The position numbers were made by a program, and so were the translations under genes. Shown here in pieces: positions 1,407-54,924 of a stretch of 64,000 nucleotides of DNA. The DNA is from Lytechinus pictus. Lineage: Eukaryota. Position 1 is the first letter of the stretch, and each line of letters opens with the position of its first letter. The notes beneath the pieces were generated by a model, which was not told the origin of the DNA, did no database searches, and saw nothing but the letters and a program-made list of their open reading frames with translations. Location: NCBI RefSeq assembly GCF_037042905.1, contig NC_087250.1, positions 25,794,001-25,858,000 of the forward strand, written 5' to 3'.

Positions 1407-2177
1407 TAACCGTACAGATTTCTAATTAATTACGTAAAGAGATGTTGATGAAATATTTATATTATTAATTATATATACTTTAGCAGGTTAATTCAATGTT
1501 TGCTTATCATTGCATTATGACATTATTTTACAGTTGATTTTTACCTTATTTGACTTTTCAATAAGGTAAAGAGGCAGATAGATAAAGGTGTTCGTTGATG
1601 CAAAAATGAAATCAAAATGAGAAAAGTAATTTACTAGCCAGTGTAATCGATTGTTATCTTCACAATTATTTTTTTTAAATATCAATTTGTAGCTCCCGAT
1701 CATTTAGCAATACATTTGTCTCTTAATGATAAGTCTTTTTTATTATTTCAGTGATTCTATTCATGGAAATATTAACACATATAGATTATTTACATACACT
1801 CAGTTCATGTAATGCATGCAATGCAGTAAAAGGAATGTTACACATAACATAAAAACCTTGACTAATTACATCGACAAAAGTTAACAGTCAATAATTATAC
1901 CACCAAGGTAGATAGAGGGGAAATAATTTCACTCAAAACATAATTATTGCGTGAATTATTAATGATATCATCATTATTCTATGACAAAATTATCGGTATA
2001 AAATATTTGTTGTTGGTTCTAGCATAAAACAATGACAATTCAAAGATGGCTTCTTACTTTACTATTCTAAACGCTTTGCTATGCATTTCTTTAATACTCC
2101 TGTCGTATTTAATTAGTCATATTCTCTAATTTGGCATGTAAAGTGATTACAACAGATCTGAGCAATATCTAAAGGGA

Positions 2178-2348
2178 TGTGTGTATTTGAGTTTTTGTCA
2201 GACGTGTATCAATCAGATATTATTCTTTACGTCTGGGACCGACCTTTAACGTCACCATCCGAAAGACGTGACCAGGGCTCGTACCTCTGCATCAATTTGT
2301 AACTTCCCCACATAGCTTGGATTACAGGCGCACGCCACAACGCCCAGT
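2178..2348 (-). mobile_element. SINE with 7SL/Alu-domain-like head, copy 1
   Basis: Minus strand begins ACTGGGCGTTGTGGCGTGCGCCTGTAATCCAAGCTA; central GTCTTTCGGATGGTGACGTTAAAGGTCGGTCC; CA tail. Confidence 0.8.
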
Positions 2349-11698: not shown

Positions 11699-14600
11699 TT
11701 AAGAAAAGCGTTTACTTACTCAACGCTGTGGGCGCCCTTCCCATAAGCGTAATCGATCGTTTGAAAAAAAAAATCGCCTAAGTGACCGGTCTGTCTTTCC
11801 CTTATAGTGTGTTAGCATAGAGATGTATACTAATTAGGCATATATCTATGTGTGTTAGATGCTAGCTATTGCAGGCAACACTCGCGGTCCAGTGCACACA
11901 GCCAGTTATTAGCTTGACTGGTAATTTTTTTACTTTTAAGATCAGATTTATTGTCAAATGTCCGAATAGGGTTGGAAACTTTTAATAACAATGATAGTAA
12001 TATTAATTCTAAATGCAATAACGTTGATTATGATAACGATAATATAATTATAATGATCATAATCACATTGCTTATATTGATTAAAATACTAATATTGCAA
12101 CTAATAAGAATAATAAACATATAATAATAATAACAATTATAATACCAATGTTGATAATAATAACAATGATAATAATAAAACTATGATAATAATAATCAAC
12201 AATAATGGTATGACAATAATATGTTCATTTCTAAAGTGCTGTTACGATATATACATAATCAACTGCTTTTATAACAACAGCAATAATGAAAATGATAATT
12301 TTTATAAACATGCAAATGAATTAAATAATTGCGAGGCCTATTTTAAATATAATTATAATCGATTCCTTTAAATTGGCTTTTATAATGATTTACAGCCCCA
12401 AGATAATCCATGAAAATAAATAACAATTATCAACAGTTATCAATATAATAGGATAATTTCCAAAATCATTTTCCTAATGCTTATATGAAGGAAAAATGAC
12501 CATCAAGTAGGTTTTTTTTTTTTTTTTTTTTTTTTTAAATTCGAAATAGCTGTTTTAAATTAAGCATTAATTACATTTAATCACTAACGATTGCTCTTAT
12601 TGCTGTGATTTTAACATCCGAACATAAAAACACAATCTTTGGGCGAAGCATCAGTGCATGGTCGATAGTGATACTCCATTCATGAGAATCCATTCAATAT
12701 TTTAACATATGTGAATGGTAACGGAAAGAGATGTTTATTTTTATTTTCTTTTACCTGACTTTCATGAATGCTTGTAAGCAACTAACACGGGGACAATGGC
12801 ATATGGTCCTCTCCGAGCGAAAGAGATCTGGTAGTTCCAAAGCGCACTAGCGCACCAAGTGGGAATCGAACCCGGGTCCCCGCAGTCCGAAGCCCCCCGC
12901 TCTACCGACTAAGCTATCTCGCCTTCTTGCAGGGTTGATCTGTTGCAGAGCAAATCCAAGTCGGACGCACTTAAGAACGTAGAAAATCTATTGTGAAATG
13001 GCTTTCTTGACAAAGAGCAACAAAGATACGTGTTTCCAAAGAGAAATTTCGTTCTGGACTGTGGACGTACGACATTATTATTTGCATTTGTTTCTCCCCC
13101 TCTGAACCTTATGAGGAACCTGCTGTTCCGATTCAAACATTTTCGACAAAGACGTTTACTGTGTGTTTTAATACGTTCTGCTTTGCAATGCGAAAACTTT
13201 TTTAATTTCAACTCTCCCGACAGGGCTCGACTATAACGGGGGCCCGGGGGGGGGGGGGGCAATGGCCACCCGAAACGGAGTAGGGTCATCCCAACAGGTC
13301 GGAACAGAGGCCAGGGTGGCCACCCAAAAATAACAAAATGAAAAAAACTAAATATCATTATTTATTTGGCAAAATGAAAATTACATAAAGAATGCAGACA
13401 ATTCAAATGTCAAGAAAAATAGGCCTATTAATCAAAATTTTGAAGTTGTAGACGTGTCTTTTTTTTCAATCATGCATGGTTTCTGTCTCTGTGTTTTTTT
13501 TCTGTAGGCTTTTTTTTAATTCTAGGTGCTCCAATCGCAATCCTGGTACAGTTTTTATGGGGAAAAAAATCATCATAGATTGCTTTTCGAAACGGAGCTT
13601 AATAACATCCCAAATCACTTAAACTCGTGAATTACAACTTGTTAAGTTCTTTTATATTTCTTTGTGGAGGAGGAAGTAAATATCAGATGATAAATCATCA
13701 AACAACAAACTTAAAGGTTGTCGGGACTTACTCTCTTGAGTATGATTGACGCTTGTGCAGTTAAAAGCTAGCCTCTCTGCAAAGCCCAAACTCCGGGGGG
13801 GGGGGGACAATCTCTCAGTAAAGGCACCAGTGGATGGTAATATTCTGTAAACTTTTAAGTAGAGTTTACATTTCATGTTAATTTTGAAAACTGCTGATAA
13901 AGGTTGATGATTTTTTTCATTGTGTTGTATATTTAACTTATTAATGAATGTATTCTCACTGAATTTAGACTCCCCCAGAAAGAAATGCAATTTTCGTGGA
14001 GATCTGCGTTTTGAAATAACTTCTGAAAACGTAAGGTGCATTTCATTGGTCTACGGATTTTATACTTAAAATACTGTTATATGGAAATAAATAAACAGAT
14101 CAATTTGCTAGAAAGATTACGGCCAGTGATTTTTATAATCGATCTAATTGGTCTGTAAATGCGAAGGGGTGAATTAATTTCAACTTTTTTTTTTATCTTA
14201 CTATAGTTGCAGAGCTATGTCCGATTTCTGTATTTTGACTATTTTGTATCAAATTGCATTCATTTTTAAAAGACTGTTACAACAGTCATGACTTGTGATG
14301 TTTAAATGTGCAGTGTGATCAGTTTGTGGTACGAGAGAGAGAAAATATCGTCGATAAAAAGCAGAGGATTAGAAATTGATTTGTTTGCAGCAAACATATT
14401 TTGAATAATCATTTTTAATATTTGGATGTAATATTTATTGAATTATACTAAAAACGAGAACAAGGATGTAATTTCGATTTTACATTTTATTAGGTAAAAA
14501 TAGTATTGTCAACTGTTTTATAAATATAAAAAGATTATATATATAAAATGGAATACAATGAATATTTTGTCTTAGTTAAGACTAATGATCCAAATCTCTT

Positions 14601-18800: not shown

Positions 18801-20498
18801 ACAACATTTAGTGTTGAAATTTTTGTATATTCTATGAACAAAAGATGATAAATTGCATGTTACCCGTTTCATATGTTACTGTGTCGAAAGTAAATCTACT
18901 AAATTAAAAAAAAAATATTAAATTTGCATTAATAAAGAAATGTTCCTTGAATAAGTGATTCAAGTCGTCGGAAGTTTTATAATAGGAATTTCACTCTTTT
19001 TGGCAAGACAAGTAATACGTTCACTTGTCTTCAATAACATAATTTTTTTCTCTATCAATGCAACCCTTCCGGACATGTGTGTAAATGGCGGGGAAGGGGT
19101 CATTCCCCTCCTAATGGCAGAGCTAACCAGGAACATGAAGAAAATAAAAAAAAAACGGGAAAGGGAAAGAAAACGGGGAAGAGTGGGGGGATTGAAAAGG
19201 GTAAAGATAGGGGAAAGCAAAAACATAAAGAGAAGAAAGGTAAAATTATACGAAGAAGACCATGTTGGAATGAAAAAAAAAAACATCCCGATATACTGAT
19301 AAATTAGTGAGAACTGATAAATAAATTAAGAAATGGCAAATTGGAACTGGAATCCATGGCGGTAAAGGGAAAGAAAAGAGACCAAAAGGGACGGAAAATA
19401 AGGATAGGATGGAGTGAGATAAAATGCTAAGGTAAAACTAAATTGAAAAAAAATAAGGAAAAAATAAGAAAAAAGGAGAAGTATCTAAAAACACGGCCTG
19501 CCTGCCGAGGTTTTAAAATAGTTTTTGTAAGATTAAATTTAAAAAAGCGCCAACGGGTACTTAAATGGAATCCACCCTTGGTCATAAAATGTTGCGTTGG
19601 AAAGGGGGAAAAGGAAAAAAAGAAAGTTATGGCTGCTTTAAAATTGAGTTCCCTAAGACTAAGTATATTTCAAATTGGTAACTCGGTAAGTAAATTATTC
19701 CAAATTAAGGGGCAAGGACAACTTTCATAATAGGCAATTAGGGATTCGCGATTTTCTCCCTACTACCCATTCCGCTGAGACAGTAGTCTAAGTACAAACC
19801 AGCTCGTATATTGTTTTATGTTTTCAAGAAATAAACATGAATAAACAGAAGAATAGTCATTGCCTTACATTACGAAAACATCACAGATGCATCCGATTCG
19901 AAGTGTCCATGGGTATAATGATCAACATTATTTTACAACTTTTGAAAAATCATAATGTTCGTATTGTTTGCCCGATATTGTTCAAACTTTTATACATACC
20001 AACTAATCTGATTTTCTATTTCCTCTGAAACAAATTTTTATTGGGTTGATTCCCCAGTATTGTGTAATTGCTCAGAAATTATTGCCTTTCAAAAAAATAC
20101 TTGACCAATCACGTGGCAGGCTTTGCAAGCTACAAATGATAATCTCTTACAAATTCCAGTTGCTAAGAAATCTTGCGGGATTGGGCCTTTGCTCGTACAG
20201 GGCCTTGCCTGTGGAATTTTCTTTTACATAGTCTGAAAACCTAGACTTTAGTGACAATTTCCAAGGGAAACCTGAAAACATACCTGTCAAAGATTGCTTT
20301 TTGATAGACATTGACTTATTGTTCAGACATGTATTATATGTAAATAGTTTTTGTTGTTCTGCTCTGAAGAAGCGCCTTGAGCATCAAATCAAGATGGAAA
20401 GAGCGCTATACAAATCTCATGTATCATTATCATGATAAATGTGTCGGTCTACATATATGAATTTCACATTCTTAAATATATTCTTTTATCCAGTCCTA

Positions 20499-21345
20499 GA
20501 GCAGTGAACGAGAACGACGCAGCAGTCGTCTGATCGTTTGAGTCAACGTCGCGACGTCGTCTGCCCTTGTTCACTACAATTGCGAATACTTCAGATTTCA
20601 TTCGACTTGTACATGTACGTACGTCCACGTGAAACAGCGCGATAACCAGCGGGTCATGACACGCTGCCCGTCCCGGAAGATCTGGCGTACCATCGCCTGG
20701 CGACCCGGTCGGATGATGCGAAGGTGCAACTTGTGCACACGTGCCCTTTCACTTGCTTTGATTCCTTTTTACTCGAGTAAGGATATATATCGATATAAAT
20801 TTTTGAGGTCAGAAAGCAATTCCAAATATGATAAATACAATGCATCGTACAACTTCATGCTTCATGCTCCATGCTGGGCTTGAACGGTCAAAATGACGTC
20901 ACTCACGTACACGTCCACTATGATTTAGGAGAACCGCAAAATGGATGTGGCGAGGTTCTCGATTCTGATAGTGGACGTGTGTGAGGACCTGAGGCATATG
21001 GAACGCCAAAAAATGACGTCATCTCGTACCAGTCGACTATGTGGACGTACATTTCTAAAAGTGCTCAGTAAAGACACTGAGCACTTTTAGAAATGTACTT
21101 GTGCACAAGTTGCACATTCGCATCACCCGACCGGGTCGCCAGGCGATGGTACGCCAGATCTTCCGGGACGGGCAGCGTGTCATGACCCGCTGGTTAAACA
21201 TGGTTATCGCGCTGTTTCACGTGGACGTACGTACACGTACAAGTCGAGTGAAATCTATAGTATTCGCAACTGAAGTGAACAAGGGCAGACGACGACGTTG
21301 ACTCAAACGATCAGACGGCTGCTACGCCGTTCTTGTTCACTGCTC
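20499..21345. mobile_element. Foldback element/MITE with ~245-bp inverted arms (PIF/Harbinger-like)
   Basis: GAGCAGTGAAC...GTTCACTGCTC termini; CTA on both flanks; arms near-identical in reverse complement. Confidence 0.88.
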
Positions 21346-22504
21346 CTAAAACTCTCCAATAATATCAATGGGACGTCAGTTTCGACAGCGCACCAACGTC
21401 CCAACACAAAAACATTTCGAAATAAAGTTGACAACTAAACCTCTCTTTTGTTTAAACATATACAAAGAAAAATTAGATTAATTTAAAACGGTCAACCACT
21501 AAATTAATCTTCATAAATAAACAGAAAATCATAATGGTGTTTTTGGAACTATGATTTTTATTTTTTATTTTATTTTAGAAATGCACGATAAGCATGCTAT
21601 TCTGTTAATAACTATTTGTTGTTCTTGTAACAAATTATCTTGGGATTGCGAATTAGTTGTTATTGAATAAAATTGAATCGATTATAATTTGATGGAAGGT
21701 GAATAGGGTACATTTCGTTAGACTACGTCTGACATGTTCGTAGAACTGACGGGTAAATTCCAACGCACTGATCAACTGGACTGGTTTGTCACCATGGTCA
21801 TGATCAGTAAAATGATGCGCTATGTCGAGAACATTCCAATCTCTCTTCTTGAACGATATTTCAAAGCATTCTTTAAGAAAAAAAATCGAGGCAGGACTGA
21901 AAATTTTAAGTCCAAGATAGTCTGGTTCAAAGTCTCCAAAACAGGGTTAGCCCTTATCGTAATGGGACAGAGAAAAAAGATAGCGAATGGCAATACCACT
22001 TTTTCTTCACGATTATTAAATATGTTTTTACTAAAATTTCGTTACTAATGGCATAACTGGGACCTCATGTCTCAATTGAAACCAAGAGCTTAGGAAATCG
22101 TTCATGCATGGCAGAATACAAACAATAGATATTGAGACATATCACAAACGATTTGCGCAGAAACTTGCGTGTGAACCTGAATCTACTCTCATTTCAGGGA
22201 TCAGTGAGAGAATCCTAACAAAGAATACAAAAGAAATGCGAATGAGCCAATCGTCGAATAAGCACGGTCGTCGTATCACGAACCAGTCTTGTCCAATTTT
22301 TCTGCGCAACGTTGTTTTGACTTTAAAATTTCTAACTCGTCTTGCTCATTAATGCGTGAGGTGTTCGTATCATATATTAAATGCTGTAACTCCCGAATTT
22401 ATAAGATGAATAATAGCTATGTATGAGTGTTTTTTTTTCACTGTTTCGTATTCAAAGTTGATCTAAACAATTTGAGGTAACGATGTTGCTTAGAATTGCT
22501 TACA

Positions 22505-22675
22505 ACTGGGCTTTGTGGCGTGCGCCTGTAATCCAAGCTATGTGGGAAAGCTACAAATTGATGCAGAGGTTCAAGGTTCGAGCCCTGGTCAGGTCTTTCG
22601 GATGCAGGTGACGTAGATAATCATATCTTATTGATACACGTCTGACAAAACTAAAATACACACACACACACACAC
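22505..22675 (+). mobile_element. SINE with 7SL/Alu-domain-like head, copy 2
   Basis: ACTGGGCTTTGTGGCGTGCGCCTGTAATCCAAGCTA head, B-box-like GGTTCGAGCCC, (CA)n tail. Confidence 0.8.
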
Positions 22676-22850
22676 GCGCTCAGAAAATGAACTGTACTTT
22701 TACTTTTTATTTTCGAAAAAAACCTCTCAGCTGGCCATTATGATTTGAACTGCATTTACAAACGAGTTGGTGCTTTATAAAAAGCGCCTTCGAATTAATT
22801 GCAAGAATAGGCAAATCTTTTAGCTTAGATGTCAAGGCGAAGGGAGTTAA

Positions 22851-23638: not shown

Positions 23639-24215
23639 CTGATATATTATGTTTTTTTTAATTGTTATTAATACATTTTATTAGCACTAAAGTGTATTAG
23701 CAAGAAAACTGCAGTGTCGACACATTCTGCCGGACACCTGCATGATGCAAAGAGGTGTTTAACATATTTATAGGGATATGTAAATTAGGGTATTATTATT
23801 TAGAGTATATAGAGACAACGTGCATCTTTAAACGTTGCTGAAAGTGACAAACGATTTATAAATTGTAACGGTTGGTCCTTATTGTCTCTTTGTGCGAGGA
23901 AAGCGAGAAATGTGGTTAGAATTGTAAATTGAAAAATTAGACATCAAATAGTTATATTTAACATCTACGAATATTAAGCATGGGTTGGACCTACATGTGA
24001 CTAAGTTTAACAATCTGAAAGAGGTGGGTTTTTAATTGTATTTTGAATTTCTCAAGCTTTCTTTTAACTTTCGACAAAAACCTCTCAGCTGTCCATTATG
24101 ATTTGAATTGCATTTAAAAGGAATTGCAAAAATACGCAAATATTTTTGCTTAGATGTCAAGGCGAAGGGAGTAAACAGTGATCGCATTTTGGGAGCATTC
24201 ATAAGTAGTACTTAA

Positions 24216-24794
24216 AGGTCAAGTCCACCCCAGAAAAATGTTGATTTGAATAAATGCAGAATAATCTAACCAGCATAACACTGAAATTTTCATCAAAATT
24301 GGATGTGAAATGAGAAAGTTATGACATTTTAATATTTCGCATGTTTTACTCAAACCGGTCATTATTCACAAGTCAGTGTTGTCCATCATTTATTATTTCT
24401 TGTGTTTTTTTATTGTTTGAATTATACAATATTTCAATTTTTACAGAATTGACAATGATATAAGACTTTTTTGAACCACATAATGTTAAGCAATGTTAAT
24501 TTTACATGTAAGGGAGGAATAAAACTCCATTGCACATGGAAGGGGGGGGGGTCAGAATATTTCCTATTTCCTATAATAGAATACAAAGGAAATAATGAGT
24601 GGGTGACGTCATCAGTCCCCTCATTTGCATATCGACCCTGATGTGCATATTACTCTTTTATGAAATTAAGCGAAATTCAAAAATGTCATAACTCTATTAT
24701 TTTACATCCGATTTTGATAAATTTTTCAGTGTTATGCTTGCGGGATTTTTCTCTTGTTATTCACATCAACTTTTTGTTGGGGTGTTCTTGTCCT
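24216..24794. mobile_element. TTAA-flanked (Kolobok-like) MITE; paralog at 38548-39023
   Basis: TTAA|AGGTCAAGTCCACCCC ... CTTGTCCT|TTAA. Confidence 0.85.
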
Positions 24795-26089
24795 TTAATA
24801 CGCAAACTCATAATCGATTAATCTCAAAATGAAATATTGGAAATTTTCTGTTCTTACGTCATGTGTTAACAGAACAAAATCATGTACTTATCTGCATATC
24901 TTACTTTTTTGTTATCAAAACAAAATAATTAGAAGAAAAATATTCCAAAATTATGGTGATTTCAAAAATTTTATCATAAATATATACAATGATAACCTGA
25001 TATATTATGTGTTTTTATTGTCATTAAAACATTTTATTATTCATATGACTTATTGCTCCAAATTTTGCCACACATGTACATGATGTATGAGGTGTCTTTC
25101 ATGTCATCGGGATTTGCACATTATGGTCTGGTCATTAAAAGTGTATAGAGACAAAATACATTTTAAACTTTGCTAAATGTGACAAACGATTATTAAATGG
25201 TAACGGTTGGTCCTTATTGTCGTTTAAAAAAAAAAATGAAATATTGTATAAATCAAGCCATACAAAAACATAAGCAATAGTGAGTAAGGGCATCGTCGAC
25301 TTTTTCATTCGCAATCCACTGATTCGTGCACATAACTGTTTTGTGAGAACAAAGCATTAAAATGTTATAGGTTTCTTATTCTACATCCGTGATCCAATTT
25401 TCATGACACTTTTATCGATATGCTCGCTTGATTTTTCTGTACTGATTTAAATCAACATTATATCTGAGAGGACTCGACCTTTAAATTTCGACAAAAAACC
25501 TGTCAGTTGTCCATTATGATTTGAATTGTATTAAAAAGAAATTGGTGCGTTATAAAAAGTATCTAAGAATTAATTGCAAAAATAGGCAAATCTTCAAGCT
25601 AAGATGTCAAGGCGAAGGGAGTCAACAACGATCGCATTTTGCGGGCATTCGTAGGCAGCAGTAGTTAATGGGGAAAATACATAATCGATTAATTTAAAAA
25701 GTAAAATTGTTGTACATTTTTGGTTCTTATTTCATGTGCAAAATCCTGTACTTATCTTCTCATCTAATTTACTCAAACATTTTTAAAAAAATTACAAGAA
25801 AAATCAAAATGAATAAAAAATGAACATTCAAACAATGCAATGATCAATTAACAATACAATGCAATGATGAATACTTACAATGCTCACTTGTTATAATTTA
25901 TTTTTCATTGTTATTAATACGTTTTATTGACCTCAATGTTTATCTATTGTATCAACAACATAATGAATTAGCACATTTTGTCAGACACGTACACATATCT
26001 TGTGATGAAGTGTCTTATAATTATAGTCAGGTTATATAGAAATAAACAGAGCGAGTATCCCATACGTCTTCAAAACGTCTTCAATACTT

Positions 26090-26400
26090 GAAGTGGTACA
26101 CCCTCAATTCTAGACGGAATTATCTTTTGATGAGTTTTATTGTTAAAGTATTATTTTGCCTCATAAAATGTGAAGCTGTTGAATATAATATCCATGTTAA
26201 TCCCAGATATTTTGAAGTGATTCAATTCAAACATCTAAAAGCTCGCACCCAAAGATTGCATGGTTCTGCTATTCATACATTTCCTCGTGTGTGGGGTTCA
26301 CTACCTTCTACCTTAAAGGTAGATATTGTACTACTGTCCTTTCACACCTGGTTTAATAAATTAAAACAACATGTATTATCAACCGGTTGAATGTAAACTC
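26090..26400 (+). mobile_element. LINE (CR1/L2-clade-like) ORF2 C-terminal remnant
   Basis: ARTQ...SAIHTFPRVWGSLPSTLK...FNKLKQHVL resembles the W-N-S-L-P...F-K-x-K-L-K end of CR1/L2-group ORF2. Confidence 0.6.
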
Positions 26401-27254
26401 ATTTTATTTTCAACGAATTTAAATTTTAGCTCTGACAGCTTTCCAGATCTTTGTAAGCTTTATGTTGTGCAGTGTACATGAGACTCTGACGTGGTTTTTT
26501 TTTTTTTTTTATTGTTCCAAATTCCTTACATTGATCATAATTATTCTCAGTTTACATCAATGAATTTGTAAAACTTGCTTTTGGTCATATATTGCGGGGG
26601 GGGGGACCAGTAATTTCTTGTCTCAATCATAATGTTGGCTTTTCAGCCTACATGTATAGGGTCTAATCAAACTTAATTTATATGCCAATCATTTTGTAAA
26701 CATGCATGCTAAATCATTTATTGCACAGCGCCCTCTTCATTCAAATTGTGTCAATCTGGGCACGTGCTCACATTTAATTATTATTTGAATTTTTTTTTTC
26801 TCGTGAGCTCTACTTCTACCCAGGTTGACACTTCTTCTTTTTAATTCTTGATTTAATTCTAATTTAATTTGTTGTCATCTTCAACAACTATATAGTTGTA
26901 TTTTACTATTTTGTAGTACATGTATGTATGTTATTTTTGTAAAGTCACATGGATTGGAAAGGAAGACCTTCGGGTTATAGTTATTTAGTTAATCTTTTTC
27001 CTTTCCCGGCATCCATGTGACTCTCCTATTCCTATTGTTTGTATATGTTGTTTATGTATTATGCCGAATAAATAATAATAATAATAATAATAACTGTGTT
27101 TTGTCTCTCATTGACTGTGTTTTATGCCTACATAGTTGTTTAATATACCTGTTCAGATATATACTACGGAGAATAAATTGACCTTTTATTTCAACTGTTT
27201 TCCTAATTGGAAACATGATTATCGCGGTATAACTGTATCAAGTGGTTAATTAGC

Positions 27255-27422
27255 GTGTGCGTGCGTGTTTGAGTTTTGTCAGACGTGCATCATTCATATA
27301 TCATTATTTACGTCTGGGACCGACTTTTAACGTCACCATCCGAAAGACGTGACCAGGGCTTGAACCTCGAAATTCTGCATCAATTTGTAACTTCCCCACA
27401 ACCTAGATTACAACGCCCAGTA
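27255..27422 (-). mobile_element. SINE with 7SL/Alu-domain-like head, copy 3 (small head deletion), 7-bp TSD
   Basis: Flanked by AATTAGC at 27248-27254 and 27423-27429; the paralogous site at 40831-40837 has one AATTAGC and no insert. Confidence 0.85.
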
Positions 27423-28477
27423 AATTAGCATGTTATTATTCAAGTGGGTCTATATAACTAGACTATACTAGCATTATGGGTCAGGAAACTGGCAAGGTAT
27501 GAGTAGGTGAGGACTCCAGATGGCGCTATTTTTGAAAAATTACTATCAAATGTAAAACAGTTATTCCTTATCGTCTCTTATTTAAAAATTGAAATATTTT
27601 ATATATCAGGCAAAGACAAAAGAGACTTTTTATTCTTATATATTTGTGCACGTAGCTGTAGTTTGAAAAACAAACGAAGCATTAAACTTTCTTATACTAC
27701 ATCCGGAATTGATGAAAATGTCTGCGATATGCTTGGATGATTTTTCTGTATTGATTCAAATCAACATTATACCTGGAGTGGACTCGAAGGTATTGGTGCG
27801 TTGTAAAAAGCGTCTGAGAAGTAATTGCATAAATACCCCAATCCTTGAGCAAAGATAGCAAGGCAAAGAGAGTCAACAATCGTACTTTTTGGCATTCTCA
27901 ATAAGTACTTTAACAAAAATAAAACAACAACAGAAAAAAATATATTTATTGTGGGCCGAATCGTGAAAGTGTGAACTGAGGTATGATTAGGACGGTATCG
28001 TTTATTACAATGCAATAGCAAACTAAATCGAATCTTTCACGATTCATTCACATCATTTTGGTGTGGGGTATGTAAGACAGATGGAAATACTGCTTGCACG
28101 CGATTGTCATGGCTTAACAAAATGCTAGCTTACATTAATAAGCTGTTTTAGATATCTGTAAACTGTGGCTTAACGGTGGGGGGGGGGGGGGGGGAGGGGG
28201 GTAGTTTGATTATTTTTATGACGTCACAAAGCTCAGTTCATGTGCCGGATCTAGACCTTTGATGACATGACCATTAACATTGGTTTGGCAGACTTTCTAG
28301 AGAGCGTTTCATCAACTTTTGTCCTACAGATCTGATAACTTTCCTTGATTCTGATTGGCTGAGAGGTAACTGGTTCTATTGACGGATAAAACAGGATTTG
28401 TCGAATAAAAATCCTTTCATGAAAGACTCCCCTGATGAAGTAGGTGTTTACTGAAAGTACATTTATTTATCTAACCA

Positions 28478-28661
28478 CCCTTTCACAAGTTAAAAAAAAA
28501 TAGTAATTTGAATAATGATTCCAGTGTAAAATAAGGCTAATGACGATTATTTAGCACGTGTGAAAGCAAACAAGAACATGATTAGAATCACGAACGCTAA
28601 TCACAGTCACGATAACAATCATCATTACAATGATGATTCAAGATTCACGTGTGAAAAGGCC
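28478..28661. mobile_element. MITE; related copy at 61943-62131
   Basis: CCCTTTCACA...TGAAAAGGCC termini; shared GAACATGATTAGAAT(C/T)ACGAACGCTAATCAC. Confidence 0.7.
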
Positions 28662-28689
28662 GTTATTTTCATAGCAAGGCTTTGAAAAT

Positions 28690-28728
<39 letters not shown>

Positions 28729-29842
28729 CACTGTAAAAGCCTGTTTAGAACTTCAGACTGTAATTCTCAAGCAGGTGGTACAGTTGTATGAGACAACGTT
28801 TATAATGTGTATACTGACCAAGGAAACCAACGAGTGTTTTTTGGCCTTACAATCAGGTAGCAAGCCCGGCATGCCATAATTGCTGCATCTTTGTTAAGTG
28901 TAATTAAATAAAAAGAAAAGTGCATAAATCTAAATTTGCATTATCAAATAATTGTCTTAGGGAAAAAATGATACTAAAATCGTTTTAGATTCATCTTAAT
29001 ATTTTATACTAGGTGACATAATCTCATTTAAAGCATGTGTTATATATTTTTTTATTTTAAATTGTGAAACAGTATAAAACTCAACACTATTTCTATAGAA
29101 AAGACGTGTGGATTGAAATTAAATCGACTTTAATGATGCTGTTCATATCTGAAAGGTTAATGGGCCAGATTTTTTAGGTGTGGGGGGGGGGGTAGGAGGA
29201 TTCGGATCGCTAGAAGGTGGGGTATTTTATGAAGGGATAAGTCTGTTGTTATATCTGGCAGAATTAGTTTTATCCGACCATAAGTATACTAAGAACTTGG
29301 CTGTAGATATGCCGTTATAACAAAGGTGCCCCCCCCCCCTGATAGCGAAGACTTTTTTTGCTTGTCCATTTTATAAAAAAATAAAATAAATTTCGAGCAC
29401 ACATAATCAATTCTGAATAATTAGTGTATAGATTATGGGATGTGTTTTTGAGACATTTTGTGTTAAGAAATTTGATATTAGGATAACAAAAATGTAAAAA
29501 AATTACACGAGTTGGTAGTAAAATAATGATCAACCCCCCCCCCTCCTCCCCTTCACAAGTTCACTCAAGAACGTCCACCATCATTACTCATCATGGCAAT
29601 AGCGTTACAGAACTTTTTTTTGGGGGGGGGGGGCAGACATGCCAATGGGGCAAATATTTTACAATTTGTTCAACAAGATTTTTTCACTGTTTTGATAGGG
29701 CAAACTGGTATTATGATATATTTTGACATACTATTAAGAAGATTATGAAAATAATGAAATGTTCATCCCCTTTCTTTTATTATTTTCTTCATTGAAAAAC
29801 AGGTAAGGGGGATAGGAGAGATGAATAAAGAGGTAGAGGGGA

Positions 29843-29876
<34 letters not shown>

Positions 29877-30994
29877 CGAGAGCAACATTTGCTGACAGGA
29901 GATTTTATCAATGTGTGGTAAATGAATGAATACAATGAACAAAATATCGTACTAAGTTTGTTTAATATACTAAATTCACTATAGTAGGCCTTTAATAACA
30001 GTGTTATTGTACAATTGCATAATGACGTCCATAAATGGAAGTCATATTTGCTTAAGCAAATTGCTACATCGTTAATTAAGCGACCAAAGTGAAACTGATA
30101 ATTGGTTCCATGCGCCTTATAATAGCAAGCGTTATGTACATACGACTTACTGAGTTTTACCATTCAATTTAGGCCAACGCGATCAAAACAAGTGTATCGA
30201 ACCACTGGCAATTAGAATAACGCTAATTACCACTTAACAGAAACGCTTAAAAAGGGTCTCCCATGCTTTATTTAATTAATAGGCAGTTTTCGCTGCTCGG
30301 CGGACAACGAATTCTAGAACACAGTTTATGTATTGAAAATGCTTGCAAATGACAATGAACAGCTGGGATGTTTTGTCAAAAATTCTTGAACTGGAACAGC
30401 AAGTTAGTCTTTCATGTAAGTTTCGGAGCTGACGAATAATTGCAAATATTTCGTTTACTCGTCCAGAGTCCGGGAAGAAACTGCTGTTTCGATTCACCAA
30501 TTTTCGACAAAGACTTCTGCGTTGCTCTTTGACCTGAATGCAAGGGCGGAAATCTCTCCCCAAGCAAAAATAAGAAGGTTATCACCCCAAAAGGTCATTT
30601 CAACCAAAATAAATTTGACAAGCCCCCCCCCCCCAAAAAAAAAAAAGAGAGAAAAAAAGTTAATCATCCAATCATCCAAAATACATGTTTTATTTCGAGT
30701 TTTAGTGATGTATTAATTCCATCATAAAAGACCAAACATAGTCGGGGGACATTTCATATAGAACTGTATGTATTATTTTAAGTATATATTGTTTTGAGGG
30801 GCAAATCATATTTTAACCACACCCCACCCCCTCCCGATTCAAAAAAAAAAACGAACAAAGAGATGAAGCAAAAAGAATGACATTTTATGTAAATTTATTA
30901 CTTTTAAAATAAATACACACTAAAATTTGTAAAACAATGTAATCTTGTTACCTGTCCCATGTCCTTTAGTCATGACTGTATAAATATGATTGAA

Positions 30995-31587
30995 AAGTCA
31001 AGTCCACCCCAGAAAAATGTTGATTTGAATAAAAAGGAGAAAAATCAAACTAGCAAAACGCTGAAATTTTTCATCAAAATCGGATGTAAAATAAGAAAGT
31101 TATGACATTTTAAAGTTTTGCTTATTTTTCACAAAACATATGCACAACTCAAACGAGACAGTCGATGATGTCCCTTACTCACCATTTCTTTTGTTTTTCA
31201 TTGTTTGAATTATACAATATTTCATTTTTTTTATAGATTTGACAATAAGGACCAACTTGACTGATCATATAGTATTAAACAATGCTCATTCCACATGTTC
31301 AAGGAGGAATTAATCGTTCTTTCACTTGACAATGAGGAGAAAAATTGAATATTCCATATTTCATACTATAAAATACCAAATAAATGGTGAGTGTATGACG
31401 TCATCAGTCACCTCATTTGCATATCCACCAGAATGTGCATATAACTGTTTTGTGAAATTAAGCAAAACTTAAAAATGTCAATACTTTCTTATTTTACATC
31501 TGATTTTGATGAAATTTTCAGTGTTATGCTTGTTGGATTTTTCTCTTTTTATTCAAATCACCTTTTTGTTGGCGGTGGACTTGTCCT
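30995..31587. mobile_element. TTAA-flanked (Kolobok-like) MITE
   Basis: GTCAAGTCCACC ... GGTGGACTTGTCCT|TTAA. Confidence 0.85.
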
Positions 31588-34500
31588 TTAAAGAGGTACA
31601 TGGATTCAAATAAAACATATTATTTATATCCTAAATGAATACAATATACATGTACCTCAATCAAGTGTACAACTACAAACATGATACATAATAATACATC
31701 TTTAAAAACAAGAATAACTAAATCCTATTTTTATGCTTAATAAATATTTTCATTTAAAAGAGACAAAGATTTATGTAATATCATGAAGAGGAACTCACAG
31801 TGATGTTATTTATTCTTCTCCTTTTCTCCTCTTCCACCCCTCCTCTTCTTTTTCTTCTTCATCTTCTTCTTTTCCTCCTCCTTTTTGGTTGTCTTATTTT
31901 CTACTTATTGTTCATTTGTATTATTATGACCTATCATCATTAACATTATAATGATTTTATGATAACAATCATAAAAAGATATCCACAATGGCAATATGAT
32001 TATTATCTCTGAAAAAATGAAAATTAGTACTTTTGTTAATTTTCAAATCTTAAAGATAATACTTCAGGGTACAGCCAGATATTTCCCTTGCCATGTGCAA
32101 CCAGGTCCATGAAGTCACGTCTTCAACAGTCTTGACTCTTGAACAATCTGAAATTAGAATAATCAGTGAAGACAACTTTAGCAACTCAACTTTATAATAG
32201 AAGAGTGTTCACATACATGTGCATTTATGATGTATCTCTTCAAGATTATGAAAGAGCCTTTTGAGATTGCAATGACAGGCTTAAATAACAAAAAATTATA
32301 TAATGTAAAATAAAAAATGGGTTAATAGTCTCCGAATATTATTTTTTATACCCTTATATGGTTGTAAGAATATATTTTATTTCAATCAAGTCATTGGAGA
32401 AAATGTTCATATGTGGCGAAAAAATACAACACAAAATTGAGGTCAAGGTCATGTTTATGTTATCAACTTGCCACCTCTCCCTTCTACTCCTACCACTATT
32501 TCATTCTTAAATGCACTTATATTATGTTTATGCTTGTAAGCTCACGTTGTTAGTCTCTTTGTTGAGATTCTAATGAAAAATATAAATCAACTGAATCTGA
32601 ATCTCTTGCAAAAGTTAAGTGGAAAATAACTGTTACAATAGTATGGATTCTATAGTCTTCCTAGATTTTGTTTTAATTTTGACGTGTTACATTGTTTTTG
32701 CTCTTACATATTTTTGAGAATGCATTCCATAATTATATTGTCATTAATTGAAATATTAAGAGAGCTCAGTTGTCAATTAAAACTTGACTTTCAAAAAAAA
32801 ATTAATGAGATTGATATCATCCATTTTTGTGAGTAAATTTAAGATGAAATTATTACAAGATGTGGATGAATTGTAAAAGAGATTCATATTTGAAAATGAA
32901 TGATATATAACAGTACATCACATTTACAACCGCTCTTAAAAACAATAAAATAAATTAGAATAAATATTACCGTACAGTATACTTGTATTTACAAGTAGAA
33001 TATTCAATTAACACAACTTTATATAAAAACTCACCTTCATACTAAGAGATTTCTTGTTCAATGGCACACAGTGGCAGAGTGTCTGGACTTCCATCTCCTT
33101 CCAGTTGCAATCCCCTTCTTTATTTCTACCTCTTCTCACCGTTTGTGTGGTTCAACTGTTAGGAAAGTGAATACCAAATTTTTTATAGTAACAGATGAGA
33201 ATGAATTCATATTTACATTTTGAATAAACTGAAGTCCCTTTAAAAAAATATTTTAATCATTACAGATTTTGTCAAATATATTTTGACAGGGGTGTTGGGA
33301 CAGTTTCACTGGCTATTTTCAGAACTGTGTAAAAATGAATTCTATCCATGAGTGCATTGAGAATACTAATCAAAGGCAAATAAGGTCTAGTCATTCAACC
33401 TTGAAATGGTTTGATAAAAACACTAAGAAGGTTCAGATTTGAACCTTAGGGGTTGGTACAATAAGGAGTGCCAATGAGAGCAATTATGCTCATTTGTGCA
33501 CCTTTATGGGTGTAGCAGATTTGAACCATGTAATAAAGGTTAAAAGATTTGAACATTTTTAATGTTTAAGTAATACTATTATGCACCTTAAAAGGTAAAA
33601 TGTTGCCCCTTTTATTGTGCAAACGAACATTTCTGGGTGCAAACAATAATTTTTGCACCTTTTATCACTTAAGGGTGCAATATTGCAAGGAGAGTACAAG
33701 TGTTTCATTAAGGCTTCAAATTCCTTCTTTCTGTTAGAAAAATATGTTAGAAAAATGATTTACACACGCAATATATGAATACTTCTAATGAAGAAAGGTT
33801 TTGATAGGTAAGAAAATTTTAGGCCTTATAATTCTATTATTTATACAAAAAATAGGGATTTAAAAAAATTCAAATTGCCAAGGTTTTTTTTCTAAAAAAA
33901 GCACCCCTTTAATAATTTATCTAAAAAATTCTTTAGAGTAAATAGGTAAAAGAAATAGAATATAGTATAAAATTTTTTTGATAACAGTCACCGAGAGAAT
34001 TTCAATTATCATGGTTATTTTTATCCACAGATCAGAAACCAAATCTTGTAGTTACCGGTAATGGAAATGCCTTTTCTCCAAGCATATTACTTGTGCATTG
34101 GTTTAAAATTAATAGAAAAGGCATTTGATAAGGTTTTTAACCTGTTAAACAAATCAAAGAACTAAAATGTGCACTATATCTAAACTTATCAAACAGGTAG
34201 CTTGTCTACAGGCCAGCAGCCAGCTCGCAGAGAATATATTCAAATCAGAAAACACAGAGGATACATACATGTAGATCTATTTTTTGTTGTTGACTGCATG
34301 TTCAACTCATTGCTTTTGTTAAAAATTGGAAGAGTCTAAAATATCAATCGAAGATGTACATTAATATCTATATTAGATATCAACATACAATGTAGTCATC
34401 AGTCTCATCAGACAAGTTTTTTGTGAAATTACATGTCTTTTCAGTTCAGTGTTTAACTTAATTAGTTCATTGTGTAATTCTTCTCCCCCCCCCTTTCTTT

Positions 34501-36195: not shown

Positions 36196-36682
36196 TTGTC
36201 AAACGCCGGAACCTCCGGCTAGCACTGCCGGCCTTGTACGACTAAAAGCAGCCGGAGAGTTTACAAGCAATCATTGCATAAAATTGACGGCGATAATAAT
36301 TAATTCAAAATATCTCTTAATACTTAGAAACTTTAATTCTTAGTCAGAACGTGAGATAGATCTATTATCTATGATATATAACCATGAAAATTGGATACAT
36401 ACCAAAATATGCCTCTTTCCCGTCAAAATGGGAAGCCGATGACCCTTTTTCGCAAGAACTTGCTGCGGCTGAAAAATGACAACTTATGCCAAGTTTATGT
36501 CAACAGGCTCGTTCGTGACTATTCAGTTTATGTAATGATGATTAAATCGCGTCATAAGCTAAAACAATACATAGATATTTTTATGCAACAGAATTTATAT
36601 CAACGGCATAAGCTATGCATGATTTTATGTTATTATCGAAATTTATGTCATTATGACATAAATTTTTTTGCAACAGGGCCCA

Positions 36683-39600
36683 GAAAACATACCTGTCAAA
36701 GATTGCTTTTTGATAGACATTGACTTATTGTTCAAACATGTATTATATGTAAATAGTTTTTGTTGTTCTGCTCTGAAGAAGCGCCTTGAGCATCAAATCA
36801 AGATGGAAAGAGCGCTATACAAATCTCATGTATCATTATCATGATAAATGTGTCGGTCTAGATATATGAATTTCACATTCTTAAATATATTCTTTTAGCC
36901 AGTCCTAGAGCAGTGAACGAGAACGACGTAGCAGTCGTCTGATCGTTTGAGTCAACGTCGTCGTCTGCCCTTGTTCACTACAATTGCGAATACTTTAGAT
37001 TTCACTCGACTTGTACGTGTACGTACGTCCACGTGAAACAGCGCGATAACCAGCAAGTCATGACACGCTGCCCGTCCCGGAAGATCTGGCGTACCATCGC
37101 CTGGCGACCCGGTCGGATGATGCGAAAGTGCAACTTGTGCACACGTGCCCTTTCACTTGCTTTGATTCCTTTTTACTCGAGTAAGGATATATATCGATAT
37201 AAATTTTGGAGGTCAGAAAGCAATTCCGAATATGATGAATACAATGCATCGTACAACGTCATGCTTCATGCTCCATGCTGGGCTTGAACGGTCAAAATGA
37301 CGTCACTCACGTACACGTCCACTATGATTTAGGAGAACCGCAAAATGGATGTGGCGAGGTTCTCGATTCTGATAGTGGACGTGTGTGAGGACCTGAGGCA
37401 TATGGAACGCCAAAAAATGACGTCATCTCGTACCAGTCGACTATGTGGACGTACATTTCTAAAAGTGCTCAGTAAAGACACTGAGCACTTTGAGAAATGT
37501 ACGTGTGCACAAGTTGCACATTCGCATCACCCGACCGGGTCGCCAGGCGATGGTACGCCAGATCTTCCGGGACGGGCAGCGTGTCATGACCCGCTGGTTA
37601 TCGCGCTGTTTCACGTGGACGTACGTACACGTACAAGTCGAGTGAAATCTAAAGTATTCGCAACTGAAGTGAACAAGGGCAGACGACGACGTTGACTCAA
37701 ACGATCAGACGGCTTCTACGCCGTTCTTGTTCACTGCTCTTAAAACTCTCCAATAATATCAATGGGACGTCAGTTTCGACAGCGCACCAACGCCCCAACC
37801 CAAAAACATTTCGAAATAAAGTTAACACGCTAAATTTAGCAATTGTTTAATTATATACAAAGACAAATTAGATTAATTTTCATAAATAAACAGAAAATCA
37901 TAATGGTGTTTTTTGTACTATGTTTTTTTTTTTTTTTTTTTTTCAGTCTAGAAATGCACGATAAGCATGCTTTTCTGTTGATAACTATTTGTTGTTCTTG
38001 TAACAAATTATCTTTGGGTTGCGAATTAGTTGTTATTTAATAAAATTGAATCGATTATAATTTGATGGAAGGTGAATAGGGTACATTTCGTTAGACTACG
38101 TCTGACATTTTTGTAGAACTGACGGGTAAATTCCAACGCATTGATCAACTGGACTGGTTTGACATCATGGTCATGATCAGTGATGCGCTATGTCGAGAAC
38201 GTTCTAATCTCTCTTCTTAAACGATATTTCAAAGCATTCTTTTTGCAATTACTTTGTAGACACTTTTTACAAGGCAACAATTCCTTTTTAAATGCAATTC
38301 AAATCATAATGGACACCTGAGAGGTTTTGTCGAAAAAAAAAGAAAGCTTGAGAAAATCAAAATACAATTAAAATTTTTAATTGTATTTTGAATTTCTCAA
38401 GCTTTCTTTTTTTTTAAAAAGGAATTGTTGCCTTGTAAAAAGTGTCTACAAAGTAATTGCAAAATACGCAAATCTTTTAGCTCAGATGTCAAGGCGAAGG
38501 GAGTCAACAATGATCGCATTTTGGCAGCATTCATAAGCAGTACTTAAAGGTCAAGTCCACCCCAGAAAAATGTTGATTTGAATATAAAGAGAAAAATCTA
38601 ACAAGCATTACACTGAAATTTTCATCAAAATCGGATGTGAAATATGAAAGTTATGACATTTTAATGTTTCGCCTATTTTAATCAAAACAGTTATTATGCA
38701 CAAGTCAGTGATATGCAAACGAGAGAGTCGATGATGTCAATCACTCACTATTTTTTATGTTTTTTGTTGTTTGAATTATACAATATTTCAAGTTTTACAG
38801 AATTGACAATGATGTAAGACTTTTCTGAACCACATAATGTCAGTCCCCTCATTTGCATATCGACCTGGATGTGCATATTACTCTTTTTGTGAAATAAAGT
38901 GAAATTTAAAATTGTCATAACTAAATTATTTTACATCCGATTTTGATAAAATTTTCAGTGCTATGCTTGTGGGATTTTTCTCTTTTTATTCAAATCAACT
39001 TTTTGTTAGGGTGGACTTGTCCACGCAAATTCATAATCGATTAATCTCAAAATGAAATTATTGCATATTTTCTGTTCTTACGTCATGTGTTAACATAACA
39101 AAATCATGTACCAATCTGCCTATCTTACTTACTTGCCATTAACAAAATACAATAATAACCCGATATAATATGTCTTTTTATTGTGATATTTACATTTCAT
39201 TGGTTCAAAGGTATGATTGCACAAATTGTGTATTGTTACAAATTTTGCCAGACATCTACATGATATATGAGGTGTCTTACATGTCGTCGGGATTTGCACA
39301 TTGAGGTCTTATTATTTCAAGTATATATAGACAAAATACATTTTTAAACGTTGCTAAGTGACAAACGATTATTAAATGGTAACGGCTGGTCCCTATTGTC
39401 GCTTCTTTAAAATAAATGAAATATTGTATAAATCAAGCCATAAATAGAAAGAAATAGTGCATGAGGGTATCATCGACTTTTTCATTCGCAATTCACTGAT
39501 TCGTGCACATAACTGTTTTGTGAAAAACAAAGCATTAAATATTATAGGTTTCTCATTCTACATCCATGACCCAATTTTCATGACACTTTTATCGATATGC

Positions 39601-42600
39601 TTGTTTGATTTTTCTGTATTGATATAAATCAACATTATATCTGAAGTGGACTCGACCTCTAACTTTCGACAAAAAATCTCTCAGCTGTCCATTGTGATTT
39701 GAATTGCATTGAAAAGGTATTGGTACGTTGTAGAAAGAATCTGAGAAGTAATTAAAAAAAAAATAGGCAAATCTTCTAGCTAAGATGTCAAGACAAAGAA
39801 AGTCAACAACGATCGCATTTTTGGCATTCGTAAGCAATAGTCAAAAGGGAAATTACATAATCGATTAATTTAAAATATAAAATTATTCTGTTCTTATTTC
39901 ATGTGTTTACATGAACAAAATCCTGTACTTATCTTCTCATCTACTTTACTTAAATTTTTGCAAAAACTATACCAGAAAATTAAAATGAATAAAAAAATGA
40001 ACATTTGAACAATGCAATGATTAATACATACAATGTTAATTCGTTATATTTTGTTGTTTTATTGATATATATAGAAATAAATAACGTCGATAAGTACAAT
40101 CATTATTTCAAAAAATTTAATTCAAATTTCGCCAGACACCTACATATTACACGTAGTGTCTTACCATGGACGTCTTACATATTTGTAAGTTGTGTTACAT
40201 AGGAGCTAAATCGTTTTCTTAAACAAGAATCATGGTTACTCATGGCAAAAATTTGAAAAAATACTTGGTCCACATTGTCACTTCATTAACTCTAAAAGGA
40301 TCATTTGAGTTATATTTATAAACAGTACTTAATAAGGAAATTACATGATAAACTGAAAAAAGGTTATTGCATACTTTCTGTGTTTATTTCATGTGTTTAC
40401 GTCAAAAAAATCCCTTACTTATCTTTTTTGTAAATTATATCAGAATAAAAAAAAATCTAAATATGATAATTTAAACAATACAATACAATAATGAATACTT
40501 AAAATGTTCACCTGTTATATTGCATTTTTTATTGTTATTAATACATTTTATTGACCTCAATGATTATCTTTCTATCAACAAAATAATGAATTAGCAGATT
40601 TTGTCAGACACGTACACATTCCATGTGATGTAGTGTCTTTTATAGTCAGGTTATATAGAAATAAAGAGGGCGAGAACTGTATGTGGTCTCTCACTGACTG
40701 TGTGTTATGCCTACATAGTTTTTTAATATACCTGTTCAGATATATACTACGGAGAATGAATTGACCTTTTATTTTAACTGTTTCGCTACTTGGAAACATG
40801 ATTATTGCGGTATAAGTGTAGTGAGTGGTTAATTAGCATGTTATCATTCAAGTGGGTCTATATAACTAGACGAAACTAGCATTATGGGTCAGGAAACTTG
40901 CCAGGTACGAGTAGTTGAGGACTCGAGATGGCGCTATTGGTTCGTATCTGCTTTAAAACACGAAATTGAAAAATTACTATCAAATGTAAAACAGTCATTC
41001 CTTATCGTCACTTCTTTTAAAAAATGAAATATTGTATAAATCAAACAAAGACAAGAGAAACTTTTCATTCTTATATATTTGTGCACATACCTGCAAAGCA
41101 TTAACATTTCTTATTTTACATCCAAAATTGATGAAACTTTCAGCGATATGCTTGGATGACTTTTTTGTATAGATTCAAATCAACATTATATCTGGAGTAG
41201 ACTCGACCTTTAACTTTTGACAAAAACCTCTCAGCTGTCCATTATGATTTAAGTTTCATTTCAAAAGGTATTGGTACGTTGAAGAGTCTGAGAAGTAATT
41301 GCAAAAATACGCGAATCCTTTAGCAAAGATAGCAAGGCAAAGGGAGTCAACAATCATATTTTTTTGCATTCTCAATAAATACTTTTACAAAAATAAAACA
41401 ACAACCGAAAAAACATTTATCGTGGGCCGAATCGTGAAAGTGTGATCTGAGCTATGATTAGGACGGTATCGTTTATTACAATGCAATAGCAAACTAAATC
41501 GAATATTTCACGGTTCATTTCACACCATTTTGGCGTGGGTTATGTAAGACAGATGGAAATACTGCTTGCGCGCAATTGTCATGGCCTAGCAAAATGCTAG
41601 CTAACATGGATAAGCTGATTTAGATATCTGTAAACTGTGGCTTAACAGGTGGGGGGGGGGGGGGCAACAGCGTTTTTACAGTGTATGTGAAAACACTGTG
41701 TTCTTTCGAGCACAAATAGTATTATAGATTATGAAATGTATTTCTGAGACATTTTGTGTTAATACATGAGTAGGTCGTAAAATAATGATCACCCCCCTTC
41801 ACAAGTTCACTCAAGTACGTCCACCCTTACTCATCATGACAATAGCGTTACAGAAAGTTTTTTTTTTTTTTTGGGGGGGGGCAGACATGCCGTATGGGGC
41901 AAATATTTTATAATTTTGCCATCAAGATTTCTTTTTTACTGTTTTGATAGGACAAACTGGTATTATGATATATTTTGACATACTATTCAGAAGATTAATA
42001 AAATAATGGAATGTTCATCCCCTTTTTTTTATTTTTTTTCTTCATTGGCCTTGTAAAATAGGTGGGGGGTGGGAGAATAGGAGAGAGGAAGAAAGAGGGG
42101 GAGGGGAAGAGAGAGAGAGAGCAACATTTGCTGACAGGATATTCTATCAATGTGTGGCAAATACAGTGAATACAATGAACAAAATATCTTAGCTTGAAAC
42201 TAAGTTTTTTTTAATATACTAAATTCATTATAGTGCGCCTTCAATAACTGTGTTATTGTACCATTGCATAATAACGCCAATAAATGGAAGTCATATTTGT
42301 TTTAGCAAATTGCTACATCGTTAATTAAGCGACCAAAGTGAAACTGATAATTGATTCCATGTGCCTTATAATAGCAAGCGTTATGTACATACGACTTAAT
42401 GAGTTTTACCATTCAATTTAGGCCAACGTGAGCAAGACCAGTGTATCGAACCACTAGCAATTAGAATAACGCTAATAACCACTTAACAGAAAAGCTTAAA
42501 AAGGGTCTCCCGGGCTTCATTTAATTAATAGGCAGTTATCACTACTCGACGGAGAGCGAATTCAAGAACACAGTTCATGTATTGAAAATGCTTGTCAAAA

Positions 42601-43030
42601 TTAATGACAATGAACAGCTGGGATGTTTTGTAAATTTTTTTGAACTGGAACAGCAAGTTAGTCTTACGTAACGGAGCTCACGAAAAATTGCAAATATTTC
42701 GTTTACTCGTGTAGAGTCATGGTCGAAACTGCTGTTTCGATTTACCAATTTTCGACAAAGACTTCTGCGTTGCTCTTTGACCTGAAGGCAAGGGCGGAAA
42801 TCTCTCACTAAGGTAGGGTGGACAATGAGCTGGACAATTTGACACGCAAAAAAAAGAAGGTTATCACCACAGTAGGTCATTTCAACCAAAAGGAATTTGA
42901 CAAGACAAAAAAAAAAGGAAAGAAAAGTTTATCACCCAATCATCCAAAATACATGTTTCATTTCGATTCTTAGTGATGTATTTCTTTCCATCATAAAAGA
43001 CCAAACATAGTCGGGGGACATTTCATATTG
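36683..43030 (+). repeat. Segmental duplication, copy B (immediately upstream of the nAChR-like gene)
   Basis: Same anchors as copy A. Confidence 0.92.
36908..37739. mobile_element. Foldback element/MITE, duplicate of 20499-21345
   Basis: Same sequence and same flanks; copied with the segmental duplication. Confidence 0.88.

Positions 43031-43447: not shown

Positions 43448-54924
<11,477 letters not shown>

Follow-up and report, generated by a model that had tools for sequence, protein, structure and literature searches.

A short interspersed element with a 7SL-like head, inserted into one copy of a local duplication in a sea urchin genome

A short element resembling 7SL RNA lies within one of two locally duplicated blocks of the Lytechinus pictus genome and is missing from the other, which raises the questions of how it came there, when it did so relative to the duplication, and what kind of element it is. 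An initial annotation of the locus held that the element had been inserted by target-primed reverse transcription after the duplication, that its family had been mobile relatively recently, and that it is not just a 7SL pseudogene fragment. The 64-kb stretch of DNA analysed here (the window) holds three copies of this SINE family, which are interspersed and not tandem, each shorter than 1 kb; their positions, with those of the other features on which the argument draws, are collected in Table 1.

Table 1. Positions in the window of the SINE copies, their parts, the insertion site and the duplicated blocks.
Feature	Position	Strand	Basis or remark
TSD copy at the element's 3' (tail) end	27248..27254		single at the empty site, 40831-40837
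SINE copy 3, whole insert, 168 nt	27255..27422	-	175-nt gap (168 + 7) against block B
Remnant of 7SL-like head, copy 3	27390..27421	-	13-nt and 2-nt deletions relative to copies 1 and 2
B-box-like motif, copy 3	27357..27366	-	19 nt before Deu core
5' core of Deu domain, copy 3	27311..27353	-	by-eye match to AmnSINE1 row; motif scan
3' stem-loop, predicted LINE-recognition signal, copy 3	27280..27316	-	invariant 7-bp stem
CA/ACGC microsatellite tail, copy 3	27255..27268	-	sequence
TSD copy at the element's 5' end	27423..27429		sequence and alignment
Empty paralogous target, block B	40831..40837		alignment with block A
Host dispersed repeat split by the SINE (limits approximate)	27092..27530		contigs of public runs
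Block A, local direct duplication	24029..30759	+	colinear match
Block B, local direct duplication	38374..43028	+	colinear match
SINE copy 1, full head, SRP match 2302-2348, one B-box unit, no TSD found	2177..2348	-	
SINE copy 2, full head, 17-nt net deletion in Deu core, no TSD found	22505..22676	+	

The window also carries many copies, in both orientations, of a repeat of about 250 nt (11377-11703, 24212-25484, 30993-31591, 38544-39662 and 46653-46834) that has an octamer-like motif and is MITE-like. Exons of a ligand-gated ion-channel gene (PF02932) lie at 44288-49638 on the forward strand. At 59822-61453 on the reverse strand there is a B-box gene without introns, whose family is expanded in sea urchins; its product shares 90% identity with a protein of Lytechinus variegatus, and those named among its 115 matches are from Lytechinus and Strongylocentrotus. 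ARAGORN calls a tRNA-Thr(TGT) at 11276-11347 on the reverse strand, for which Rfam gives no match at the gathering score.

The copy under study, copy 3, is bracketed by exact AATTAGC direct repeats, as had been reported, and at these fixed boundaries the chance of a 7-nt match is about 1e-4 at the local base composition. The exact repeat ends at 7 nt, the bases beyond both AATTAGC copies not being alike; with one mismatch allowed it grows to 11 nt by taking in the last bases of the CA/ACGC tail, which are similar to the target, a likeness that may perhaps reflect pairing of tail and target at priming. When the region around the insert was aligned with 40620-41140 of block B, a single gap of 175 nt opened, and the paralogous sequence at 40825-40844 reads as the initial annotation had given it, with one AATTAGC and no insert. 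The ends of copy 3 are polarised, with a simple-repeat tail at the 3' end, and comparison of the two ends by eye revealed no terminal inverted repeats. A lack of TSDs at other copies, which the initial annotation had named as evidence against its reading, is in part what we see, as a flush repeat of at least 5 nt is present at none of four other copies (copies 1 and 2 and the related elements L001 and L002), none of which has an empty site to fix the ends of the element. No empty paralogs of copies 1 and 2 were found within the window, and copy 2 lies within a stretch that block B is without.

Blocks A and B match in seven pieces, in the same order and on the same strand, with 7.5-11% substitutions. 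The neighbouring pair 20271-21874 and 36680-38242 has diverged by only 3.4%, where the remainder of the duplication stands at about 10%, and its history may differ from that of blocks A and B; with a 240-nt inverted repeat (36907-37146/37501-37740) in its 36680-38242 copy, the pair is likely a DNA transposon copy or a conversion tract. Block A also carries a second insert (26056-27091, forward strand, 1036 nt), which lies 156 nt to the left of the TSD of the SINE. It has an (AAT)n end and no TSD, and its site in B, at 40674/40675, is exactly empty. Its 114-aa frame has no Pfam hit, and its Atlas matches are unnamed eukaryotic clusters; we take this frame to resemble the C-terminus of a LINE ORF2, and the insert is likely a 5'-truncated LINE. 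The tail of the SINE does not match the 3' end of this LINE-like neighbour (32/500 shuffles).

The polarity of the difference between the blocks was assessed by comparing contigs from four of 24 public runs (X1, X5, X2 and X13) with 27000-27700 at a likeness of 85. Run X13 gave only three contigs and was uninformative; 2843 (X1), 2574 (X5) and 2575 (X2) contigs matched the 701-nt stretch, along which their summed depth peaks over the SINE. The right flank (27432-27503) proved to be part of a dispersed repeat, with about 100 contigs at each of its variant sites in X1, X5 and X2. Contigs at the right TSD run leftwards into sequence like that of the left flank, not into the SINE (at least 36 + 21 in X1, 27 + 22 in X5 and 17 + 18 in X2), so the normal state of this host repeat is empty. 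The outgroup comparison that had been proposed for deciding between insertion and loss thus finds a counterpart in a target that is empty in dozens of contigs from three runs, which fixes the polarity as insertion. Among the contigs listed, none spans 27000-27700 or bridges a junction between flank and SINE, and the outer bins have no depth; contig joints that skip the SINE are indistinguishable from empty paralogs of the host repeat. That B is a sister copy of A and not a generic paralog is indicated by the letters at 27217, 27244 and 27456, which the two blocks have in common and which differ from the host-repeat majority; they lie 31 and 4 nt to the left and 27 nt to the right of the insertion site. 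The simplest reading is that the SINE entered A once the duplication had taken place. In X1 the summed depth over the host repeat (27092-27530; 40675-40960) is about one eighth of that over the SINE, and near the right end of this repeat block A is without 26 nt that B and the repeat family keep.

The flanks near the site differ between A and B at 83 of 904 positions (9.2%, or about 4.6% per lineage since duplication). Against the majority letters of X1 and X5, copy 3 shows no fewer than 8 differences over about 140 positions (5.7%, CI 2.5-10.9%), where the denominator is our own and one of the eight differences is of CpG type; pairwise divergence among copies 1, 2 and 3 is 7.7-15.9%. Unless copy 3 comes from a minor subfamily, insertion and duplication are of about the same age. 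With 5.7% set against 4.6% per lineage, the phrase 'relatively recently' overstated the case: recent here means a few percent divergence, not current activity. By the same figures, age alone would also accommodate an insertion before the duplication followed by precise loss from B, through recombination between the 7-nt repeats or conversion from an empty paralog, and many such paralogs are available as donors. However, B keeps the three letters that it shares with A, so that a conversion tract would need less than about 30 nt of flank, and the second insert of block A likewise has an exact empty counterpart in B. Moreover, short repeats rarely lead to precise loss. We therefore regard such a loss as unlikely, and even then the element would still have arrived by insertion. 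For insertion into block A the initial annotation is upheld, with target-primed reverse transcription after the duplication as the most likely mechanism and timing.

We next turn to the identity of the element. A 76-nt stretch around the head of copy 1 matches the Metazoa_SRP model of Rfam (4227 families) over positions 1-44 at 29.6 bits (E 9e-7), far below the Rfam gathering score of 70; the match spans 47 nt, extends from model position 1 to the close of the 5' domain, and keeps the closing helix through changed pairs. At gathering thresholds, Rfam gives no match anywhere in the window. The score of copy 2 is weak (11.5 bits), and copy 3, whose head lacks 13 + 2 nt, has no SRP match. These deletions disrupt both the first hairpin and the last part of the predicted A box, and, as 13 nt of its head are lost, copy 3 is likely a dead copy. 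The earlier term '7SL-like' thus fits copies 1 and 2 and the contigs but not copy 3 by itself. In copies 1 and 2 the full head runs on into the body, and it is also found in contig loose ends (at least 17 + 18 in X1, at least 13 + 10 in X5 and, with low agreement, at least 39 in X2); all three window copies begin alike and have their parts in the same sequence. The minimum-free-energy folds predicted for the heads are no more stable than those of shuffled sequences (z 0.17 and -1.01), covariation in the hairpins does not exceed that of shuffles (74-94/500), and the exact head pattern has no locus in viral and metagenome contigs. The definition of a SINE given by SINEBase requires 60% identity to tRNA, 5S or 7SL over at least 60 nt (PMC3531059), a length that the 47-nt SRP match does not reach. 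Judged from its sequence, the head is likely a 47-nt piece of 7SL RNA, the Alu 5' domain.

Behind the head, the family is built of a B box, a 5' Deu core, a stem-loop and a CA-type tail. The B-box-like motif lies 19 nt upstream of the Deu core in five of five elements, including the tRNA-headed L001 and L002. Its unit is single in copy 1 and a 7-nt tandem in copies 2 and 3, and the single form at 27368 is seen in at least 44, 36 and 21 contig loose ends in the three runs; the two states (27362-27375) represent either two subfamilies or recurrent slippage. The three window copies have no match to a tRNA-type A-box pattern, and none contains TTTT, a weak pointer to Pol III. By eye, the Deu core agrees with the AmnSINE1 row of Kojima 2020 (Fig. 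S4, PMC7245038) at 23/28 positions with one gap; about 43 nt are kept of the roughly 140 nt in the published alignment, the remainder being absent. A Deu motif derived from that alignment has two matches in the window, both in the 7SL-headed family, and none in 100 shuffles. The 7-bp stem of the 3' stem-loop is invariant in five elements and without covariation support. The family has lineage-specific forms: the majority letter of run X2 (organism B) at 27344 is peculiar to that run, in which a variant at 27289 is also common. As to abundance, there are three copies in 64 kb, more than 2500 contigs matched per run, and about 100-120 contigs at variant sites (at most 128 being counted at any one), but contig numbers are no copy count; an extrapolation from three per 64 kb to tens of thousands of copies per genome was dropped as too weak.

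An exact 24-nt pattern from the Deu core identified two loci in metagenome contigs, L001 and L002, and none in prokaryote genomes and viral contigs. Over body and tail, these elements agree with copy 1 at 87/94 (93%, L001) and 82/85 (96%, L002) aligned positions, levels reached by 0/1000 shuffles in either case, and B-box position, Deu core, stem-loop and tail are as in the sea urchin family. Over the head, in contrast, neither resembles copy 1 (201/1000 and 94/1000 shuffles): unlike the 7SL-like head of the sea urchin family, their two different heads appear tRNA-like by eye and have no SRP match. One of them has an A-box match, and ARAGORN called no tRNA in either element. With body and tail in common and heads that differ, these relatives point to head replacement, in which the 7SL 5' domain was placed onto the 3' half of a tRNA head. 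In L002 (160-385, forward strand) the tRNA-like head is longer than in L001 and weakly matches the linker after the 7SL piece (23/1000 shuffles for copy 3), which makes it a lead to the ancestral head.

Three other accounts of the element were weighed against such a replacement. The head might be a degenerate tRNA 5' half or a chance likeness, and the family an ordinary tRNA-derived DeuSINE, for instance a relative of SINE2-3_SP, as the brevity of the match, which is under both the Rfam gathering score and the 60-nt rule, would allow. Against this stand the E-value among all 4227 families, the extent of the match from model position 1 to the close of the 5' domain, the agreement of 28/30 letters with a 7SL-derived head of hagfish, and the dissimilarity to the heads of L001 and L002, save for the weak linker match in the latter; we consider this account very unlikely. 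The copies might instead be independent chimeric retrocopies, produced each time the enzyme switched from a tRNA-headed Deu SINE to 7SL RNA, with no self-propagating family. Template switching onto small RNAs has been described (in the relevant part of PMC4494074), and tRNA-headed forms with the same body exist, but the junction and linker are identical in 3/3 window copies and in contig loose ends from three runs, where separate switches should yield varied 7SL lengths, making recurrent switching highly improbable. To the last account, in which the element is a processed pseudogene of 7SL or, as in Alu, a 7SL RNA whose 5' part was joined to its 3' part by an internal deletion, we give hardly any credence. 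TSDs are found on processed pseudogenes too, so TSD and empty site by themselves cannot decide the matter, and Rfam did align copy 1 along the entire SRP model, with the linker paired with the tail; this alignment was rejected as fill-in, as whole copy 1 scores 30.2 bits against 29.6 for the head alone and the sequence beyond the head adds 0.6 bit. Moreover, the tail is common to tRNA-headed elements without an SRP match, and the middle part is the Deu core. It is on this chimeric build and the tRNA-headed relatives that the earlier statement that the element is not just a 7SL pseudogene can stand.

What is seen at the locus and among its relatives is an insertion, a duplicated target, a multi-copy chimeric family, and tRNA-headed elements with the same body and tail. 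We suggest that copy 3 is likely a SINE copy that a LINE placed there through target-primed reverse transcription, around the time of the duplication and most likely just after it, and that its family arose when a piece of 7SL took the place of part of a tRNA head. Specifically, the 5' Alu domain of 7SL RNA would have replaced the 5' half of the tRNA head in an older Deu-type SINE, giving a hybrid promoter, with a 7SL A box and a tRNA B box as predicted from the sequence, that would be read by RNA polymerase III. Recognition of the 3' stem-loop by a LINE protein of the CR1/L2 type would then lead to priming at the target, to which the short match between tail and target may contribute. A partner of this type is likely, since the table in PMC3747384 gives a tRNA head and a CR1 partner for SINE2-3_SP, a DeuSINE of Strongylocentrotus purpuratus. 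By analogy with the Alu 5' domain, the 47-nt head may bind SRP9/14 and thereby carry the RNA to ribosomes. An Alu 5' domain of 46 nt is described as enough for SRP9/14 binding and one round of retrotransposition in HeLa cells (in the experiments concerned of PMC11760393).

The family was compared by eye with published SINE sequences of two known groups. A close counterpart in the first is SINE1-1_EBu of the hagfish Eptatretus burgeri (as presented in the main account of PMC7245038), which also has a 7SL head on the body of an older tRNA-headed SINE, a microsatellite tail and a non-L1 partner; the first 30 nt of the sea urchin head are identical to its consensus at 28/30 positions. However, the hagfish element is described there as having 96 nt of 5' 7SL together with a 3' 7SL part, a 7SL B box, a bipartite RTE tail and TSDs of about 17 bp, whereas the sea urchin family has about 47 nt of 7SL, a tRNA-type B box, a Deu core, a stem-loop and CA tail, a 7-nt TSD and an invertebrate host. 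Alu, B1, Tu and Urop, as characterised in the sections of PMC13023118 on these families, start like the sea urchin family with the 7SL Alu 5' domain, the part that binds SRP9/14, but they also have a central deletion that joins 5' and 3' 7SL, a poly(A) end and a reliance on L1, none of which is present here. Among the features of SINE1, then, a 5' end from the 7SL Alu 5' domain is found in copy 1, weakly in copy 2 and not in copy 3. A central deletion joining 5' and 3' 7SL is not seen in the family, its body being common to tRNA-headed relatives, nor is a 7SL-derived B box, the B box being in register with that of L001 and L002.

In the second group, the DeuSINEs, SINE2-3_SP, EbuSINE1 and AmnSINE1/SINE3 have the 5' Deu core in common with the sea urchin family (portions of PMC4824008 and PMC3747384; PMC7245038 Fig. 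S4), and in AmnSINE1 and SINE3, the nearest structural precedent, a new 5S rRNA head is described as having been added onto a tRNA-headed DeuSINE. The sea urchin family differs from them in its 7SL-like head and in having only about 43 nt of the Deu domain, with SINE2-3_SP compared by its tabulated description. The tRNA- or 5S-derived head of DeuSINEs is absent from the family, in which the B-box region alone looks tRNA-derived. On these sequence comparisons, the family is a chimera that was likely made by head swap, and it is not an Alu-type deletion of 7SL RNA.

In the passages of Kojima 2020 (PMC7245038) on its classification, the hagfish family is presented as the first SINE1 outside Euarchontoglires, and Kojima 2024 (PMC10886601), in its overview, gives primates, rodents and hagfishes as the hosts of 7SL-derived SINEs; to these Kosushkin 2026 (PMC13023118), which in its treatment of the group stresses the shared central deletion, adds the shrew mole. 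As far as the relevant sections of PMC13023118 and PMC10886601 extend, 7SL SINEs are known only from supraprimate mammals, hagfish and shrew mole, all via a central 7SL deletion. A search of the literature, separate from Repbase and Dfam, returned no description of a sea urchin 7SL-headed SINE, and the supplements of SINEBase and MetaSINE may hold sea urchin consensuses. We accordingly offer only tentatively, as something possible but rather doubtful, that this is the first invertebrate 7SL-headed SINE and is unlike those known, in that a minimal SRP9/14-binding domain of 46-47 nt was grafted onto a tRNA-headed, CR1-using DeuSINE and the product spread via SRP9/14 to ribosomes.

A TSD and an empty paralog are ordinary for a SINE, and the interest of the locus lies in the 7SL-headed family to which copy 3 belongs. 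The locus is direct evidence of the chimera moving as a unit, and a sea urchin family with the 5' domain alone shows a second route to 7SL SINEs, that of head replacement. The retained piece of 7SL RNA equals the 46-nt minimal domain defined in cell culture in the part of PMC11760393 cited above. With tRNA-headed relatives that have the same tail, it becomes testable whether the Alu domain promotes retrotransposition outside the L1/poly(A) system, and if the more tentative reading is true, these head-swapped sister families would be a natural experiment on the contribution of the Alu domain to mobility.
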